Source: Candidatus Woesearchaeota archaeon | Lineage (GTDB): Archaea > Nanobdellota > Nanobdellia > Woesearchaeales > WAPY01 | Direction: 5' to 3' | Length of the DNA: 42,239 nucleotides | NCBI GenBank assembly: GCA_049700835.1 | Contig: JBNAUL010000003.1 | Location: 73,775-116,013, forward strand | In this document: one piece after another, positions 1 to 6,000 of the stretch | How positions within the stretch are numbered: position 1 is the stretch's first letter | How the letters are laid out: the number at the start of each line of letters is the position of its first letter | Made by a program: the position numbers

Positions 1-3000
1 GCATACTTGTAATCAGCATATTTTTTTAAATATTCTTTGCACTTAAAACCATTTAAGTCCTTGCAGTCATACAATACAAAGCAAGGAACTTTGTCCTCGC
101 AACTTAGTATTGCTCCGTAATCAAGAATTCCATTGTAAAGCCCGTCTCCATTCCAATCAATCTTTTCTGTTTTAGAGCAGAACTCTACTATGCTGTTGAT
201 AGAGTTTCCTGATTCATAATCACTCAACTCGCAAACCTGCATGCACTCTCTCTTTGCATTCTCAATTTCTTGCAGGTTTGTACTCCCAGGATTTGGTTTT
301 GGAATTATTATTGTTTTGTAAAACACAGCAAGGAGTATTCCGCTTACTATTACTAACACAACTATGGTAAATATGATTCCAATGGTCATTTCCATTCCTT
401 TTTTTGATTTCATCGTTTCACCTTTGTTAAATCTTATTGAGTTTCAACTTTTATTGACTTTTTCCTTCTTTATAATAACCGTACCTTACAACCCAGTTTG
501 GCGAGTTTGGATAATCTTTTGGATCATTTGGAACAGGCAAATCGCAATCCCCATCAGGAGTATCATACATTAACTTTTCAAGCGAGTCAGGCCTGTGTTG
601 GCTTAAGATTTTCTTGCAAATCGCACCATTGTATTTATTTTCTTCTTCCTCAGAAATTAATAAGAAGCATGGTATTTTGTCTTGGCAAAAAATATATCTC
701 CCCTTATCATATTTTTCTCCTAAAGTGTTTTTATTTCCATCAAAATCTATCTGCACATATGATTTGCAGAAATCTATTATGCCGTCAATGTTTTTTGCGC
801 TATCCAATTTTGTTTTACACTTGTCTATTGCCTCATCAACTTTATTCTGAGCGAACCAATCTTCTTGAACCTTTGTCATTGTTCCTGTTCCACTCCTTGT
901 GAACCGAAAAAACAAACTCAAAACAACCAACGATATTATTAAGAGAACAAATAATCCAAAAATCATTTGCAAGGACTTATCATCGCCTTTTTTATTTTTT
1001 ATTAATCCTAAAAAGAATTTTTTCATAACACATACCTCTTTTTCCAGGGCTTGCTAGTTTTTTAAGCATTTGTTTTTTATTTGTTGTTAATTATCCTTAA
1101 CTATTCTTTTATCAATATTTAAATTTTTCTTTTTTTTGATTTAATATTTTATTAAAAATTTATAGGAAAGCATATAGTTTTTTCTTAAATAATTGTTTGA
1201 TTGCTATGATTTTATGCTAAACATTTCTACACTCTTTTAATTCATAAATTTTGTGCAAAAATAAAAAACAAGGATTTATAAAATAATCAAACCTATTATA
1301 AACTATTTTCACGCTTAAATACATTATTTATAATAAATCCAATCATGTGTCGAATATTTTTCCTTATAAATTTCTTCTGCAAGAGTCAGCTCTTCCTTTG
1401 TTAGCTCCTCTTTCTCTAAATCTGTTTTGAAGATTTTAGGAAAACTCTCTATTAATGACTTCTCAACATCTTTCTGCTCAATCCTGTTCTTTGTTTTTTC
1501 ATCTAATGAAGTTAGTCCTTTGTCTAATAATCTTGTGTTTATAAGAAACTTCTTGATTTCTTCCTTATTTAATGATATTAAAATGCTGAAGTTGAATAGA
1601 ACAACTCCTTTTTTCCTGAATTGAACTATTAATGCAATTCTCATTTTGTTGACCAGAACTTCATTCAGGGGTTTGAATTCTGCTTTTATATTATAATTTT
1701 CCAAGGTCTTTGAGATTAAACTGAAAATCCTTTCGTAAGAGCCTATTAGGTCAAGGGGAATGTTAATGTTAGAATCATTGACTATTAAAGAGCAGTTGAT
1801 TTCAGAGTTTGGTTCTTTGTAGAATGTATCTGCATTGTTTAATGTTCTACAAACATCAACATTGAATCTTTTGCAATTTTCAATATTTATCTCTTCATTT
1901 ATCCTCTTAAAAAATCCAAAAACAACTGCTGGTTTTTTGAAATAATTTATTCTCAATGTTGGTTTTATCTTTTCTTGTTCTAACAAATGCATTTGGCATT
2001 CATCCAATGCCAACTGCTCAAGAAAAGAGTTTGTTTTTGAAACAATCAACCTGAATTTTTCTTCTTTTGAATCGCTTATCTGCTCTTCAGCCATTTAACT
2101 GCCCTTTTTTGAGGTTATCTTTTTTAAGCAGTATTTTGCAGCAATTGATAACGGTTCTATCGCAGGGCTTGTCAATGGGGAATAAGCATTTTCAAAGTAT
2201 ATCAAATCCTTTAATCCTGAATCTCTTTTTATTGCCAAAGCAACAATATCTGCTCTCAAAGCAACATCCTCTTTGCTTATTATTTGAGCGCCTATTATTT
2301 TTTCATCGTAATCGCTTATTATTTTTACAGCGATTTCCTCTCCATTATAATATGGTTCCTTTGTCCTTGACCATATTAATGCAGATTCAAACTTGATTTT
2401 ATTTCTCTCTGCTTCATCTTCTGTTATCCCTACAGAAGCAATTTCCATTCCAAAAATCTTTGTTATAGAATTTATTATTTTTGGTTCAAAAATTATTTTT
2501 TTATCAGAAAGAGCATTGCTTGCTGCAATTTCAGATGTTTTCAATGCAATGTTTGCAAGCTGCATTGGCATTGTTTTCCCAGTTATTTTGTTTTTTATTT
2601 CAATGCAATCTCCACAGGCATAGACATCCTTTTCAGAGGTTTCAAGTTTTTCATCAACTATTATTCCAATGTTTGTTTTTATGTTTGTTTTTTTTACGAT
2701 GTTAATGTTTGGCACAACTCCTGCTGCAAGTATGAGCATATCAAAATCATAAACTCCTTTGTTGGTGAATAATCTTCCCTGCTCAACTCTAAGTATTTTT
2801 TCATTCAATTTAACCTCAACACAGTTTCTTTGCATTTCTTCAAGAATGATCTTTGACATATCGTCATCAAGCATTTGAGGCAGCACCCTGTTTTTCAATT
2901 CAATTATTTTTACCTCTAATTTTTTCTTGACAAGCGCTTCTGCGATTTCTAATCCAATGAAACCTGCGCCGATTATAAGAACTTTTCTCTTGCTGTTTTT

Positions 3001-6000
3001 AAGCATGAATTCAATTCTCTTTTCCAATGCTTCAAAATCCTCAAGGGTTTTAAGAGTTAGAAAATTGACATCCTTTAAACCTTCTATTTCAGGAACAAAA
3101 GCCCTGCTGCCACTGGCTATTATTAATTTATCGTACGTAATTTTTTCATTATTGTCTAATATAATGCTCTTTTCTTTTGTTCTCAATTCTTTTATTTCCC
3201 TTCCTAAAACAACCTTTATTTTGAGCTCTTCTAAGAACTCCTGCTTAAACTCAAAAATCTTTTCCTTCTTTATTTCTCCAGACAAAACATAAGGAAGAGC
3301 ACAAGGAGAATAACCTATGTTTTTTCTATTTTCTACTAATACGACTTCTGCATTTGGATTTATTTTTTTTGCTTGTACTGCAGCGTTTATTCCGCTAACT
3401 CCTGCTCCTAGGATTACTAATTTCATAATTGAATTTTTTTGTTTAATCTATTTGTTTTTCTTTATTTTTTTTTATTTGGTCAATTGCTTCCTTTACAAGC
3501 TGCATGTACATTAAACTTGGGCCTCCTCCCATCATAACAGCAACCCAGCATGCTTCGAGCATTTCTTCTTCTTTTAGCCCTAAGTCCAAGCAATTCTTGA
3601 CATGGAATGCTATGCAGTACTTGCATTGAGATTTAACAGCAAGAGCCAAAGCAATCAACTCCTTTGTTTTTTTATCCAAAGCTCCATCTTCTAATGTTTG
3701 TCCGATAAAATTGTGGAACAGAGCAAGGTCTTTTGGATTTTTGCTTCCAATGTATTCTAAATTCTTATTTATTTTATTTAGCATTTTATTAAAGTCCTCA
3801 GCTATTTTCTCACCTTTTTTATTTTTTTATTTTTTTATTTTTATTTGAATATTTTGTCCTTTATTTTTCTTTCTTTTTTATTGTTTCTATTACTTGCTCT
3901 GCACTCTTTAAATCATTTAATTCATTTTTATCTTTTAATTTCACTTTCATAATCCATCCCAGTCCATAAGGATCCTTATTTATTAACTCTGGATTATCAA
4001 AAACCTTTCCATTAACATCCACTATTTTTCCGCTTACAGGGCTCTTTAAGCTTCCAGTCCATTTTATTGCTTCCAAGGTTACATAATTCTCTCCTCTTTT
4101 TATCTCTTTGTTCTTTTCTGGCAAATCAACAAATACAAATTGCTTCACCATTTTTGCGCCATAATCATTTACTCCAATGACTGCAACATCATTTTCCAAC
4201 CTAACCCAAGAATAATCTTCATTGTATTTTAATGATTCTGGAAATTCAAATTCTCTAAACTTCATGCTCTCTCGCCTCCTGATTCAAGCTCCAAAAGATA
4301 GCAAGCTTGGTTTTAAAAGCATTATCAGCGCTAATGCAATCATCACTATTCCGCTAATGAATTTAAGTATTCTTCCTGTTCTTTCGCTTATCTTTGTGGC
4401 TCCAAGAGTTATAACAAAAATTAAAACTATGAGCAACAAAGGAATAACATAAAATATGTTGTATAAAACAAGATATAAATAATAAACGATTTTTGGAAGT
4501 TGTTTCAATGTTAGAATATTAGTATAAACTGCTGGAAAACCTGCTGTGCAAGCAAGTTCTATGAAATTAACAGAAACAGCAAGTATTATTGTCTGTAATA
4601 TTAATAGTAAAGTTATTCCTTCCTCTTTGACTGTTTTTACAATGCTCCTCATCTTTTCAATGAGTTTTGGTTTTTTGGAATCGTCTATTGTTAGTGAAAT
4701 TCCTTTTTTGTAGAAAAATGCATCTTTGACATTTACTATTCCTGCAAAGAGTGCTAACAATACAATAATAATTCTTACAAATTTTTGATATCTTAGGACC
4801 AAAAATAAGTTTAACCATGCTGCCATGAACATGAAATAAACAACTCCGGAAGCAATAACAAATATTAATCCAACAATAAGCATCTTCTTCCTTGATTTTG
4901 AATAAATTAATAAAGATAATAAAAAAGTCAATACCCAAAGAGCACAGGGGTTAAAACTGTCAAGTCCTGCAATAATTATTGTAAATATTGGCAACGATAT
5001 GCTTGAAATTTTAAAATCTCCAAGAACAGGTATTGTAACTATCTTTTCTGAACTGAGATTTTCTGATGTTTTTGTTTCGTTTGGCTTGCTGCATTCAAAG
5101 AAATTAAATTTTTTTTTGTCATAAGAATATATTGGAGCAATGTTTATGCTTATTTTTTGATTATAAGATTTTTCAACATTTGACAATGCATCTTCATAAG
5201 CATTGCAGTTAGTTGTGTATTCTTCAACAACATTCTTTATTTTTAATGCTATGCTGTCATTTTCCTTAACAAATCCAGAAATAAATTTATCACCAATAAA
5301 GGTGTTTGGAACTCCTTTTGGCTTTTGATTGTAAGCATTGCAGAATTTTTCCCATAAGTCATAGTTTTCTTGTTGAGTTACCTCAAAATAATAAACATTT
5401 ATTGGATATTCCTTGCTTAGTTTTTCCAAGTATGGTTTCTCAGCAGCACAATGTGGGCAATTGTAAGCTCCAAACATATAAACATTTATTTCCCTTGAAA
5501 AACTCTTATTGCTTGCAAAAACAGAGAGAGAATTGAGTAACATCATTAGCGTTAAAACAAAAACCATTGTTAAACTAAATAGTCCTATTATTTGCCTTTT
5601 TGTTTTTCCTTTCTTATTTTTTATATTAAACATAATGACTACCAGCAATTTTTATTTTTTTATTTTTGAATAGTGTATTCGTTATCATTTCAAAAGTTGA
5701 AACAGAATATAAATCTTTGTTTCAAAAATTGAAACATGCTTTAATTCCTTTATTTAACAAAATCCAGAAATTCATCTGAAAGATAAAGAATATTTTTTCC
5801 ATTTTTTCTTTCAACTCTTAAAACGTTTTTTTGAACAAGCTTTTTAATTGTTCTTGTAATTTTAACCCTGCTCAAATCAGTGTTCTTATTTAGTTCTGAC
5901 TGTTTTAGAATTCCACTATTTTTTATAAGTTCGTTAAGTACTATTCTCTCATCATGTTCAGCCAATTTCAGAAAAGCAGCGATTTCATTTTTGTTAGTTT

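Follow-up and report, generated by a model that had tools for sequence, protein, structure and literature searches.

An orphan GcvH in a conserved archaeal gene cluster and a proposed lipoate-based thiol relay

Lipoyl proteins are reported to feed AhpD in Mycobacterium tuberculosis (PMC12440151) and, through the L and H proteins, OsmC in Trichomonas (PMC7946386). DsbD is described as drawing its electrons from cytoplasmic thioredoxin (PMC3322552). Here we analyse a gene cluster of a Candidatus Woesearchaeota archaeon in which genes for GcvH, an AhpD-like protein and a thioredoxin-fused membrane protein (TrxMem) lie together. We propose that this GcvH is the redox hub of the operon and that, judging from sequence, lipoate probably serves this organism to supply reductant to the cell surface and to peroxide defence.

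Gene content of the cluster

The window, the whole analysed stretch of 42,239 nucleotides, belongs to a genome of 1,071,587 bp in four contigs (98.66% complete) and is also present in hot-spring metagenome runs from two studies. Six co-directional genes on the minus strand span positions 1324-6262 (Table 1). The genome-wide survey's note had described an operon of five; all five are true open frames, four with strong family matches, and the motifs it had listed (SPCALPY, CKYCIAFH, EAIKW, CPHC and NPC) all occur in the translations. The conserved cluster also includes a sixth gene, encoding the winged-helix regulator. Directly downstream, on the same strand, lie two genes for cysteine-rich, pilin-like secreted proteins that are conserved in two relatives.

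Table 1 Genes of the GcvH cluster (positions in the window)
Product	Position	Strand	Features
Membrane-anchored winged-helix regulator	5750..6262	-	170 aa; weak DUF7343/MarR/ArsR-type HTH matches
TrxMem (Trx-fused membrane protein)	4284..5648	-	454 aa from TTG 5648; database form starts at ATG 5633, 449 aa
Class II ("KW") GcvH	3861..4265	-	134 aa; GCV_H (PF01597) 127.9 bits
AhpD/CMD-family protein	3443..3784	-	113 aa; CMD/AhpD (PF02627) 66.7 bits; no signal peptide
Single-cysteine flavoprotein disulfide reductase, CoADR/Nox/Npx group	2095..3426	-	443 aa
Degenerate LplA catalytic-domain paralogue	1324..2094	-	256 aa; LplA-B_cat (PF21948) 82.8 bits

The GcvH protein scores 133.1 bits against NF002270 (cut-off 117) and carries its lipoyl lysine within the motif LEAIKWTG. 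As had been claimed, it is the only lipoyl domain of the genome, being its sole PF00364 match and its single PF01597 match, and GcvT, GcvP and E2 are absent (no match to PF01571, PF02347 or PF00198 genome-wide). LipA, LplA-N and LplB are retained despite this absence, in an operon elsewhere in the genome. There, the radical-SAM gene adjoining LplA, tentatively taken for LipA before, proves to encode a lipoyl synthase (TIGR00510, 316.7 bits; cut-off 310.25), and an LplB-like small subunit beside it scores 60.7 bits against a cut-off of 65.

The genome encodes three LplA catalytic-domain proteins. The copy in the window, previously described as an LplA-like ligase, retains the fold family but has lost the ligase hallmark residues. 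In an alignment with LplA-N of the same genome and 16 unique canonical LplAs from the clusters, RR-x-TGGGAV is replaced by CRTLNNADTF and NNKKISGNAQTR by NKMRIALIVQFR, with loss of the GGG loop and of the K-[IV]-S-G-N-A-Q lysine motif; aligned to the Thermoplasma LplA 3r07, the copy has an Arg at the K-I-M-G lysine position. This protein is probably not an active ligase.

A separate GcvH clade and its neighbours

Class II GcvH proteins, which share the motif E-A-[IV]-K-W, occur in related DPANN genomes at 31 unique loci. In a quick tree their 32 rows separate as a clade (SH-aLRT 96) from the remaining 79, canonical or otherwise, and residues E65, K68, W69 and G71 are invariant in all 23 sequences aligned. 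The operon had been considered rare in the phylum, a view that does not survive: of the 401 genomes sampled, at least 28, among them that of the window, encode a GcvH with the KW motif. GcvT is present in 18 of the 401, none of them among the 27 relatives with a class II GcvH (28 with the window's own). One genome (G035) had been cited as a third relative without a conserved neighbour within 3.4 kb. Its GcvH is canonical and adjoins GcvT, so that it represents a different system and is only an apparent counter-example.

The membrane protein lies within 113 bp of GcvH at 25 of the 31 class II loci (26 with a contig-end fragment in L042), and 17 of these 25 pairs have overlapping frames (distance 0). 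Five loci (L051, L052, L061, L067 and L083) show no membrane protein in the sequence available, the L051 contig stopping 1.5 kb past GcvH. Of the 31 loci, 20 have a regulator homologue upstream of the cluster, 19 have the flavoprotein no more than 6 kb from GcvH, and 16 have LplA. The slot of AhpD is occupied at 17 loci by a secreted Trx lipoprotein; AhpD itself is present at nine, never alongside that lipoprotein, and is an optional part of the cluster. At all 11 bacterial loci examined with a TrxMem homologue, the neighbourhood lacks GcvH, the flavoprotein and AhpD alike, indicating that the link between TrxMem and GcvH is lineage-specific rather than general to the membrane family.

Properties of the encoded proteins

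The flavoprotein matches Pyr_redox_2 (194.5 bits), Pyr_redox (76.9) and Pyr_redox_dim (43.7) and, as noted before, falls below the equivalog cut-off for CoA-disulfide reductase (TIGR03385, 319.4 bits against 578.8). Among solved structures its best match is the CoADR of Pyrococcus horikoshii (3kd9, E 8.4e-56), whose active Cys aligns; a CoA-persulfide reductase (8a56) is another of the nearest, and NADH oxidases and peroxidases also figure among its solved relatives. Cys42, within SPCALPY, is retained in 20 of 21 orthologues (L048 lacks it), a Glu at the end of the second β-strand marks the dinucleotide fold as NADH-type, and a Pfam search detected no rhodanese domain. We propose that the protein is an NADH:lipoyl-GcvH oxidoreductase. 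At L064 its place is taken by a genuine dihydrolipoyl dehydrogenase (TIGR01350, 491.7 bits; cut-off 408.8), evidence that this slot concerns lipoyl. However, NADH input is not universal. A Pyr_redox_dim search of five genomes found such a flavoprotein in two; G024 (a single contig), G041 and G341 have the GcvH-membrane protein pair but no Pyr_redox_dim flavoprotein anywhere in the genome. In addition, the slot holds a TsuA-type thiosulfate transporter with TusD/C/B-like sulfur-relay genes at four loci and DUF169 at two, which argues in the same direction and suggests that sulfur chemistry may be involved.

TrxMem starts at its N terminus with a signal-anchor helix, followed by a Grx/Trx-like domain that faces outward and carries CPHC and then by a domain of about six TM helices that contains NPC (C235) and E-x-x-C-T (C367). 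Of 8000 candidates scored, 1711 were homologues at E ≤ 0.001. Both C235 and C367 are invariant in 102 sequences of the family, across which CPHC is nearly invariant. Together with these two cysteines, Trx domains on the outward side and Trx partners bearing a lipobox point to a build like that of a CcdA-type relay. The CPHC thioredoxin fusion stood as first described, whereas the "CcdA/DsbD-type" assignment of the membrane domain is backed by remote evidence only. The membrane part matches no Pfam family, neither PF02683 nor PF13386, and PF02683 (DsbD_TM) finds nothing in the whole genome even at E ≤ 10. Among the 60 matches listed in a profile search there are Trx/Grx chains only. Alignment by hhalign with 10 canonical DPANN CcdA proteins gave a probability of 71% (E 3.7e-5) over 200 columns with the first Cys aligned, and fold and embedding comparisons (AF2 model mean pLDDT 83.9) gave weak leads to CcdA/DsbD_TM. 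TrxMem, like CcdA, has single cysteines on two TM helices, in contrast to the paired CxxC loops of DsbB/VKOR. From its sequence, TrxMem probably moves electrons across the membrane by thiol-disulfide exchange and bears a remote likeness to CcdA.

The AhpD-like protein exceeds the AhpD core cut-off (TIGR00778, 45.6 bits against 27.8), and all 10 cluster orthologues have CxxC-I-x-x-H, which reads CKYCIAFH in the window. We propose it as the cytoplasmic acceptor of electrons from dihydrolipoyl-GcvH, feeding peroxide reduction. The regulator has a topology, read from sequence, of two TM helices with a CxC in the outside loop followed by a cytoplasmic wHTH; 19 of the 21 sequences aligned retain the CxC, and the protein is a probable redox sensor that controls the operon. 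As well as a peroxiredoxin (364.9 bits, cut-off 211) and a thioredoxin (114.5, cut-off 96.8), the genome encodes a CATC-containing protein that resembles thioredoxin reductase (333.5, just below the cut-off of 343.45).

A lipoate-based thiol relay and its alternatives

The best explanation is a relay apart from glycine cleavage and the 2-oxoacid dehydrogenases. We give slightly better than even credence to a path in which electrons would flow from NADH through the flavoprotein and lipoyl-GcvH to the membrane relay and the outside Trx domains, while a side branch would lead to AhpD and peroxiredoxin. We infer each step and its direction as follows. The LipA/LplA-N/LplB operon would lipoylate the single class II GcvH, whose lipoyl disulfide the NADH-type flavoprotein would reduce via a Cys42-S-S-lipoyl mixed disulfide. 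Dihydrolipoyl-GcvH would then reduce C235 and C367 of TrxMem, and these may hand electrons to the protein's own outward-facing CPHC domain; in most relatives, further Trx domains and the secreted Trx lipoprotein would join the relay. As an outcome, extracytoplasmic cysteines might be kept reduced or isomerised, or surface oxidative damage repaired. In a cytoplasmic branch of the window's family, dihydrolipoyl-GcvH would reduce the AhpD-like CxxC protein, which may feed the peroxiredoxin or itself reduce peroxides. The upstream regulator probably senses the external thiol state by its outside CxC. With NADH at about -320 mV, lipoamide at about -290 mV and thioredoxin at about -270 mV, electrons would run downhill in the reductive direction. 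The outside CPHC of TrxMem is the active-site motif of the oxidant DsbA; this counts against the relay, as do TrxMem's failure to match the Pfam DsbD_TM model, its weak CcdA fold matches, the five loci that show no membrane protein, the lack of Cys42 in L048, and a thioredoxin and reductase-like protein that could feed TrxMem instead.

Cytoplasmic peroxide defence might instead be the whole function, electrons passing from NADH through the flavoprotein, lipoyl-GcvH and the AhpD-like protein to peroxiredoxin or hydroperoxides, with TrxMem as a merely co-regulated envelope reductase that draws on ordinary thioredoxin. The intact CxxCxxxH and the genomic peroxiredoxin fit this, as do four loci (L051, L052, L067 and L083) that show GcvH, AhpD and the flavoprotein with no membrane protein in the sequence available. 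The thioredoxin and its reductase-like partner could feed TrxMem as in bacteria, making GcvH unnecessary for that step. There are reported precedents in mycobacteria and Trichomonas (PMC12440151, PMC7946386), and a Hyphomicrobium GcvH-like protein is described as a proposed OsmC donor (bioRxiv 10.64898/2026.10.01.755906). Yet AhpD is found at nine of 31 loci against 25 for the membrane protein, often in overlapping frames, the exported lipoprotein occupies its slot at 17, and the tight DPANN linkage, missing from all 11 bacterial loci, would still need a reason; we regard this reading as unlikely. Somewhat less likely still is a reverse flow for quinone-independent disulfide formation, in which CPHC would oxidise secreted cysteines and electrons would travel inward via the TM cysteines to oxidised lipoyl-GcvH, the flavoprotein and NAD+ or, Nox-like, O2. 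The nearly invariant DsbA-type motif, the cysteine-rich secreted proteins encoded downstream, the NADH oxidases and peroxidases related to the flavoprotein and the reversibility of Lpd-type enzymes favour it. However, with lipoamide at about -290 mV and a DsbA-like couple at about -120 mV, transfer in this direction is steeply uphill, TrxMem has the CcdA-like rather than the DsbB/VKOR cysteine arrangement, and the only detectable relatives of its TM domain are reductive transporters.

Sulfane-sulfur handling, which we consider slightly less probable again, would make the flavoprotein a persulfide/polysulfide reductase (CoADR/NSR/Npsr-type) and have lipoyl-GcvH carry or reduce sulfane sulfur that the membrane takes up or processes, for detoxification, sulfur assimilation or electron disposal on sulfur in a hot spring. 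The metagenomic setting agrees with this, the flavoprotein's nearest solved relatives include 8a56 and the Pyrococcus CoADR, and at four loci a TsuA/YeeE-type transporter (305.6 bits, cut-off 400) and TusD/TusC/TusB-like genes lie between the Trx lipoprotein and LipA. Lipoate-binding and sulfur-relay proteins are reported to cooperate in sHdr sulfur oxidation (PMC6067878; bioRxiv 10.64898/2026.10.01.755906). Nevertheless, phmmer against the ORFs of the window's genome found no TsuA, DsrE/Tus or DUF169 homologue, the flavoprotein lacks a rhodanese domain, and the slot's ability to take a genuine Lpd points to plain dithiol/disulfide chemistry. That GcvH merely relays or donates lipoyl to another protein, or survives as a relic from a glycine cleavage system since lost, is very improbable. 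GcvH is described as a lipoyl relay in Bacillus subtilis (bioRxiv 10.1101/419234), Staphylococcus aureus GcvH-L is reported to hand lipoate to E2 subunits (PMC12440151), and the operon includes an LplA-family paralogue; but in this genome there is no second lipoyl domain that could accept the lipoate, E2, GcvT and GcvP are absent, and a relic would not be expected to keep its lysine invariant in a clade conserved across many families.

The comparative data strengthen the earlier proposal of an NAD(P)H-driven lipoyl relay on an orphan GcvH, NADH as a universal input excepted. Since only nine of 31 loci possess AhpD, the conserved core speaks more for reductant export than for peroxide defence, the two purposes offered with that proposal. 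In the proposed lipoate-based relay, the flavoprotein's mixed disulfide would be analogous to that of CoADR, with a lipoyl partner in place of CoA. The mycobacterial Lpd-DlaT-AhpD-AhpC chain is the model for the AhpD/peroxiredoxin branch, and in CcdA/DsbD it is thioredoxin that fills the role proposed here for dihydrolipoyl-GcvH.

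Operon content and lipoylation genes of the genome

Window positions 1324-6262 hold six closely packed genes, all on the minus strand by our open-frame reading (table), with intergenic gaps, from the regulator to the LplA-domain gene, of 101, 18, 76, 16 and 0 bp. The GcvH passed both PF01597 (GCV_H; 127.9 bits, cut-off 22.2) and NF002270 (133.1 bits, cut-off 117) and scored slightly below the cut-off of the equivalog TIGR00527 (108.9 bits against 115.85), while the AhpD-like protein matched PF02627 (CMD; 66.7 bits) and the AhpD core model TIGR00778 (45.6 bits, cut-off 27.8). All three Pfam domains of the flavoprotein were found (Pyr_redox_2 at 194.5 bits), and the LplA-domain protein matched PF21948 (LplA-B_cat; 82.8 bits, cut-off 27). 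These strong profile matches lie within long open frames and are not due to chance. Our Pfam and NCBIfam scans of the window frames reproduced the family scores of the genome-wide survey's note, including its remark that the flavoprotein lies under the equivalog cut-offs (319.4 bits against 578.8 for the CoADR model TIGR03385), and all the motifs it had read (SPCALPY, CKYCIAFH, EAIKW, CPHC and NPC) were found in the window translations. The five-gene content that it described is confirmed and extended.

Coordinates of the operon genes, their flanking genes and selected features of other loci (window positions unless a locus is named; G000 is the window's own genome, C1 one of its contigs, and L numbers are fetched loci)
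Feature	Position	Strand	Description
Regulator	6262-5750	-	two-TM winged-helix protein, 170 aa
TrxMem	5648-4284	-	454 aa; database form from the ATG at 5633, 449 aa
GcvH	4265-3861	-	
AhpD-like protein	3784-3443	-	
Flavoprotein	3426-2095	-	
LplA-domain protein	2094-1324	-	
Downstream small protein	451-1026	-	pilin-like, paralogue of the next
Downstream small protein	3-413	-	pilin-like, paralogue of the previous
AAA ATPase	7018-9324	+	768 aa
Third LplA-like gene	G000 C1:384104-385123 (L005:1435-2454)		339 aa, divergent
DUF169 (PF02596)	L039:7927-8691		directly after class II GcvH
DUF169 (PF02596)	L062:6634-7416		directly after class II GcvH
Conserved cluster protein	L064:1400-2029		~209 aa

The AhpD-like protein, which has no signal peptide, carries CKYCIAFH in the window, and CxxC-I-x-x-H is present in all 10 sequences compared; we take CxxCxxxH to be the AhpD active site. 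The regulator has a CxC between its two TM helices in 19 of 21 sequences, and this loop would face outward, since the HTH domain would be cytoplasmic. Directly downstream of the operon, on the same strand, are two paralogous small proteins, each with 7-8 cysteines and a hydrophobic N-terminal stretch resembling that of pilins, a pair kept in position in L035 (same genus) and L038 (same family). These cysteine-rich proteins are possible clients of an outside Trx machinery. On the plus strand lies a gene for a two-domain AAA ATPase of the CDC48/VCP type, as judged from two Walker-type motifs, with a G+C of ~0.40 against ~0.30 for the operon. The stretch is matched in hot-spring metagenome DNA runs of two studies, and none of the listed runs that carry it is an RNA run.

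The genome (1,071,587 bp, 4 contigs, 98.66% complete) contains one gene matching PF01597, and GcvH is its sole match to PF00364; profile searches whose controls were positive in 10-11 of 14 genomes gave no match to PF01571, PF02347 or PF00198. These searches uphold the earlier statement that GcvH is the only lipoyl domain and that GcvT, GcvP and E2 are missing. An H protein without T and P, in a genome with no protein at the Lpd equivalog level, does not make up a glycine cleavage system. The genome nevertheless retains a full lipoylation set on C1. The radical-SAM gene that had been taken for a LipA-type enzyme is a true LipA: it passed TIGR00510 (316.7 bits, cut-off 310.25) and contains CFEANCPNRYEC, CTRNCLYC and RSSY, which we take to be the CX4CX5C and CX3CX2C cluster motifs of LipA and its RSSY. 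C1 also encodes LplA-N, an LplA large-subunit-like protein (PF21948, 179.8 bits), and an LplB-like small subunit (60.7 bits, cut-off 65). For the third, divergent LplA-like protein of C1, the PF21948 match (45.7 bits) covers no more than the first half of the catalytic domain. Among redox proteins elsewhere in the genome are a thioredoxin (114.5 bits, cut-off 96.8), a thioredoxin-reductase-like protein with a CATC motif (333.5 bits, cut-off 343.45) and a peroxiredoxin (364.9 bits, cut-off 211).

The operon's own LplA paralogue, which had been called an LplA-like ligase, belongs to the family but is altered at the sites expected of an enzyme. Aligned with the LplAs of related clusters, it has NNADT in place of GGGAV, the glycine loop that binds lipoyl-AMP, and KMRIALIVQ in place of KKISGNAQ, with an Arg opposite the lysine of Thermoplasma LplA; the lysine of K-[IV]-S-G is presumably the catalytic lysine of LplA. 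Both motifs are kept in 16 unique other cluster LplAs and in LplA-N, and are in part lost in the copy of the same-genus relative. All NCBIfam ligase models scored the operon protein well under their cut-offs. Given the loss of these two features, ligase activity in this genome probably resides with the C1 copy, while the operon paralogue may have a different role or none.

A class II GcvH clade and its conserved neighbours

Among 401 sampled genomes of the phylum, 82 match PF01597 at E ≤ 0.001 and 62 exceed the cut-off, many of the weak matches being short pieces within long unrelated frames. We fetched 40 regions around full-length GcvH matches and analysed 39, omitting the 1,338-bp contig of G266; internal-stop matches, weak matches and the unpublished genomes G359 and G243 were not among the regions fetched. 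The aligned GcvH proteins fall into two groups, a canonical one with E-S-V-K-[SA] and the window type, here called class II or KW-type, with L-E-A-[IV]-K-W-[ST]-G. All 23 class II proteins compared have K68, which aligns with the K of the canonical motif and is the predicted lipoyl-lysine. In a quick maximum-likelihood tree of 111 sequences, from which frames over 200 aa and two duplicate loci had been dropped, 31 of the 32 KW-labelled rows form one clade with L073 (SH-aLRT 96), and the canonical DPANN GcvH proteins group with their bacterial counterparts. The L073 protein lies inside both the cluster and the clade yet has no W, and L061 is the only KW-labelled row outside the clade.

The two groups also differ in their association with GcvT. 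GcvT occurs in 18 of the 401 genomes, and canonical GcvH and GcvT occur together in 10 (a count that takes in the unpublished G359, where they are adjacent, and G243, where they are on separate contigs), adjacent on one contig in 9. By contrast, PF01571 is absent from all 27 sampled KW-type relatives and from the window's genome. G035, which had been put forward as a counter-example because its GcvH has no conserved neighbour, is removed as such, as its GcvH is canonical and adjoins GcvT. The split between canonical GcvH, found with GcvT, and the KW-type, found with the membrane protein TrxMem, offers a simple annotation rule against "glycine cleavage" calls.

A scan of a species-genome collection for KW-type proteins outside DPANN found motif and cluster together in 6 of the best 80 of 590 confirmed loci among the matches listed, 2 of these being contigs already counted; the other 74 carry canonical or other GcvH. 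All 6 look like DPANN MAGs whatever their titles. Two DPANN-type clusters, L079 and L082, lie on contigs titled "Saccharibacteria" and "Methanosarcinales", titles that look like binning or classification errors. In L050 (genome G169, which lacks GcvT) a canonical-motif GcvH is flanked by LipA on one side and by a genuine dihydrolipoyl dehydrogenase (TIGR01350, 509.1 bits) on the other, and LplA adjoins them. This is a second kind of orphan lipoyl system, of H-plus-L type, within the same order.

Once two duplicates had been removed, the phylum sample contributed 27 unique KW-type loci and the species-genome collection 4, making 31. Homologues of each of the six window proteins were sought by phmmer among the ORFs of every locus fetched, and those within 6 kb of GcvH were counted. 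TrxMem was the most constant neighbour (25 of 31 loci), always at 113 bp or less and with overlapping frames (distance 0) at 17, followed by the regulator (20), the flavoprotein (19), a small Trx protein (17), LplA (16) and AhpD (9); L042, which is not among the 25, has a TrxMem fragment at its contig end. The small Trx proteins align to TrxMem residues ~45-145, and their N-terminal hydrophobic segment and lipobox-like G-C-S indicate that they are exported. AhpD and the small Trx protein are mutually exclusive across the 31 loci. The lipobox signal peptides rule out the small Trx protein as a cytoplasmic substitute for AhpD. Many TrxMem orthologues have two tandem Trx domains, and three have none and rely instead on a separate Trx protein. 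LipA, a canonical LplA and an LplB-like gene lie within the same cluster at many loci. A conserved ~209-aa protein without a Pfam or NCBIfam match has homologues at no fewer than 10 loci, in most cases next to the gene for the LplB-like protein and one for a regulator of ArsR type, and ArsR genes flank several DPANN clusters.

The slot after GcvH, most often filled by the flavoprotein, varies between loci. The closest solved relative of this protein is the Pyrococcus horikoshii CoADR (E 8.4e-56), with SPC aligned to APC; Cys42 is conserved in 20 of 21 orthologues, the exception being L048. The second strand of its NAD fold ends in Glu, presumably a sign of NADH preference, and at 119.6 bits against TIGR01350 (cut-off 408.8) the protein is not an Lpd. 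Enough DNA to judge this slot was available at 27 of the 31 loci (L036, L052, L059 and L060 end before it, L052 with a flavoprotein fragment at the contig end). A CoADR-type flavoprotein fills the slot at 19 of the 27, a genuine dihydrolipoyl dehydrogenase at one (L064; TIGR01350, 491.7 bits, cut-off 408.8), a TsuA/YeeE-type thiosulfate transporter with TusD-, TusC- and TusB-like genes at 4 (L042, L078-L080) and DUF169 at 2 (L039, L062); at L041 it is empty. The true Lpd at L064 is the best single argument that the flavoprotein acts on the lipoyl group. The flavoprotein is not an obligatory partner, however, as Pyr_redox_dim is absent from three of five genomes searched (G024, which is one contig, G041 and G341), the other two, G066 and G225, having one each; this counts against a universal NADH input. 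At L042, L078, L079 and L080 the transporter (305.6 bits, cut-off 400) lies between the small Trx gene and LipA, and the window's genome has no homologue of TsuA or of the TusD/C/B-like proteins. Both genomes with DUF169 lack a Pyr_redox_dim flavoprotein, and the DUF169 protein may be an unrecognised redox partner.

The membrane protein TrxMem

TrxMem combines a CPHC Trx-like domain, predicted to face outward, with a TM domain that contains C235 and C367. Among 8000 candidates scored, 1711 are homologues at E ≤ 0.001, spread over archaea and bacteria (the latter including KSB3, Nitrospirae, Nitrospinae and Geotalea); a "Candidatus Woesearchaeota archaeon" has the nearest named relative. In 102 aligned sequences C67, N233-P234-C235, E364, C367 and P372 are invariant and C64-P65-H66 is conserved at ≥90%. 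In a confident AlphaFold2 model (mean pLDDT 83.9) an N-terminal helix is accompanied by a Trx fold and by a bundle of helices, with both membrane cysteines placed at helix breaks. The Trx fold is clear, with Z ~9 in Foldseek/VIA comparisons and agreement from a PDB profile search.

The membrane domain had been described as CcdA/DsbD-type, a label that holds only as remote similarity. PF02683 and PF13386 matched none of 20 TrxMem family members at E ≤ 10, PF02683 gave no match in the genome at the same threshold (control positive in 11 of 14 known genomes), and none of the best 120 homologues has a precomputed Pfam domain on its membrane part. A PDB search with the family profile returned only Trx/Grx-fold chains, and no CcdA, among the 60 rows shown. 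Structural comparison with CcdA (5vkv) gave E 0.095 and probability 0.85 in Foldseek, which is too weak alone, and in VIA Z 7.8 with an rmsd of 4.2 over 187 residues, not above the helical-bundle background. Among the language-model (Atlas) neighbours, the share of members with DsbD_TM, DsbD_2 or SfLAP is 13-79%. An hhalign comparison with 10 canonical CcdA proteins from DPANN of the same phylum gave a probability of 71% and E 3.7e-5 over 200 columns, aligning N-P-C on S-P-C at the first Cys, with the second Cys offset by 3 residues. Given this remote bundle evidence and the lack of a Pfam match, TrxMem is probably a distant, unmodelled CcdA/DsbD relative outside PF02683 that works like those transporters. 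Canonical CcdA occurs in 107 of 201 phylum genomes, in none of the 3 from the window's family and not in the window's own. Predicted complexes of the TrxMem membrane domain with GcvH scored 0.12 and 0.10 (mark 0.32) and were counted neither way.

Outside the phylum, 18 of 301 Thermodesulfobacteriota genomes have a TrxMem homologue. At the 11 loci fetched from these, no GcvH, flavoprotein or AhpD lies beside it, the neighbours being unrelated housekeeping or transport genes, which argues that the TrxMem-GcvH link is specific to DPANN. In one of these bacteria (L193) the TrxMem homologue has an ArsR regulator and an ArsP permease on one side and an SBF/ACR3-type carrier on the other, a setting reminiscent of arsenic resistance.

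A candidate lipoyl relay and its known counterparts

We propose that electrons would pass from NADH to the flavoprotein (Cys42/FAD) and on to lipoyl-GcvH. From there one branch would lead through the TM cysteines of TrxMem to the CPHC Trx domain(s) outside and from these to client proteins, and another through the AhpD-like protein to a peroxiredoxin or peroxides; we infer each of these transfer steps from sequence. By midpoint potentials the reductive direction is downhill at every step, with dihydrolipoamide equal to thioredoxin as a donor. PMC8760232 gives lipoic acid a potential of -325 mV. Lipoyl proteins donate to AhpD in M. tuberculosis (PMC12440151) and to OsmC in Trichomonas (PMC7946386), donation to OsmC is proposed for Hyphomicrobium (preprint 10.64898/2026.10.01.755906), and DsbD-type proteins move the electrons of thioredoxin outward (PMC3322552). 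In the literature covered, which did not extend to subscription journals, we found no report that joins a lipoyl relay to DsbD-type export or describes this cluster. Each half is known on its own, and their proposed joining is new; so far it is seen only in Woesearchaeota-like DPANN genomes.

The genome-wide survey's note had favoured an NAD(P)H-driven lipoyl relay serving peroxide defence and/or reductant export. The relay idea stands, with its weight shifted to the membrane arm by the constancy of TrxMem, while the optional AhpD and the degenerate operon LplA tell against parts of the original version. A purely cytoplasmic peroxide chain is the rival that would need the AhpD branch alone; it can draw on the peroxiredoxin of the genome, and the distribution of neighbours places the membrane protein, not AhpD, at the centre. 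Two further readings, a reverse (oxidative) flow through the same carriers and a role in sulfane-sulfur handling, are both kept alive by the CPHC motif, the cysteine-rich pilin-like genes downstream and the sulfur-relay variants of the slot. An extension that we consider improbable would have class II GcvH and TrxMem supply the oxidative-folding or envelope-redox machinery that quinone-free DPANN archaea are missing. Outward CPHC Trx domains would then exchange electrons with cytoplasmic lipoyl-GcvH by way of the two membrane cysteines, in a modular, possibly two-way hub plugged lineage by lineage into NAD(H) (through a CoADR-type flavoprotein or a true Lpd), a thiosulfate/sulfane-sulfur relay (TsuA with TusD/C/B-like proteins) or DUF169, and the oxidative direction would give quinone-free disulfides in secreted cysteine-rich pilin-like proteins.

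Lipoate is normally the cofactor of a few central metabolic complexes. Here, a 1.07-Mb genome devotes about nine genes (LipA, LplA-N, LplB, two LplA paralogues, GcvH, flavoprotein, AhpD and TrxMem) to one lipoyl protein without the classical complexes. If the reductive relay through TrxMem is correct, a transmembrane thiol relay would take its electrons on the cytoplasmic side from lipoyl-GcvH in place of thioredoxin. Lipoate would have a novel function, and the CcdA/DsbD type of envelope redox pathway a novel source of electrons. The same reading would also provide a function for a large Pfam-less membrane-protein family and account for the handling of cysteines in surface proteins, a basis of host-attached life, in some DPANN archaea.

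A close parallel to the cytoplasmic branch is the Lpd-DlaT(SucB)-AhpD-AhpC peroxidase chain of M. tuberculosis (Bryk et al. 2002, as cited in PMC12440151). The proposed relay has the same succession of a flavoprotein linked to NADH, a lipoyl group on a carrier protein and a CxxC protein of the AhpD family, and a peroxiredoxin is encoded in the genome. However, the carrier here is a free-standing GcvH rather than an E2, the flavoprotein is of the single-cysteine CoADR/Nox type rather than Lpd, and AhpD is optional, the conserved partner being the membrane export arm. Retention of an H-protein without T and P, as a putative lipoyl electron carrier for thiol-dependent defence, recalls the L-protein/H-protein/OsmC peroxide reduction of Trichomonas vaginalis hydrogenosomes (Nyvltova et al. 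2016, as cited in PMC7946386) and the GcvH_1-OsmC pair proposed in Hyphomicrobium denitrificans (preprint 10.64898/2026.10.01.755906). Unlike these, the window operon belongs to an archaeon and has neither L protein nor OsmC (no search for OsmC elsewhere in the genome was made), and its acceptor would be the AhpD-like protein and/or a membrane thiol relay.

Two other systems share the gene context in part. The GcvH-L - LplA2 - SirTM - macrodomain operon of Staphylococcus and Streptococcus, described in PMC12440151 and PMC4518038 as carrying a second GcvH and linked to oxidative-stress resistance, likewise pairs a non-glycine-cleavage GcvH with its own LplA paralogue. By contrast, neither the ORF list nor a Pfam scan of the eight frames at 451-6819 showed a sirtuin or macrodomain gene within or next to the operon, there are no E2 lipoate targets, and GcvH is accompanied instead by the flavoprotein, AhpD and the membrane Trx protein. 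In sHdr-LbpA sulfur oxidation, which works with sLpl(AB), LipS1/S2 and DsrE/TusA relays according to PMC6067878 and preprint 10.64898/2026.10.01.755906, a GcvH-like lipoate-binding protein also acts outside the classical complexes and clusters with its own lipoylation genes, and four of our related loci have DsrE/Tus-type sulfur-relay genes and a YeeE-type transporter. The differences are that no Hdr-like gene appeared among the Pfam-scanned neighbours of related loci (42 of 82 unexplained frames scanned, with no family search aimed at Hdr genes), that lipoyl synthesis here is by classical LipA rather than LipS1/S2, and that the window's genome has no sulfur-relay genes.

The export arm can be compared with DsbD, CcdA and ScsB (PMC3322552; CcdA 5vkv), which have two essential cysteines on separate TM helices and fused or partnered extracytoplasmic Trx-fold domains, and which require a cytoplasmic dithiol donor. 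TrxMem probably resembles them in these features, whereas its membrane domain is unmatched by PF02683 and PF13386 and its second motif is E-x-x-C-T-A-G-x-P where theirs is P-C. The cytoplasmic partner of those transporters is thioredoxin, while the one that is gene-linked to TrxMem is a lipoyl protein.
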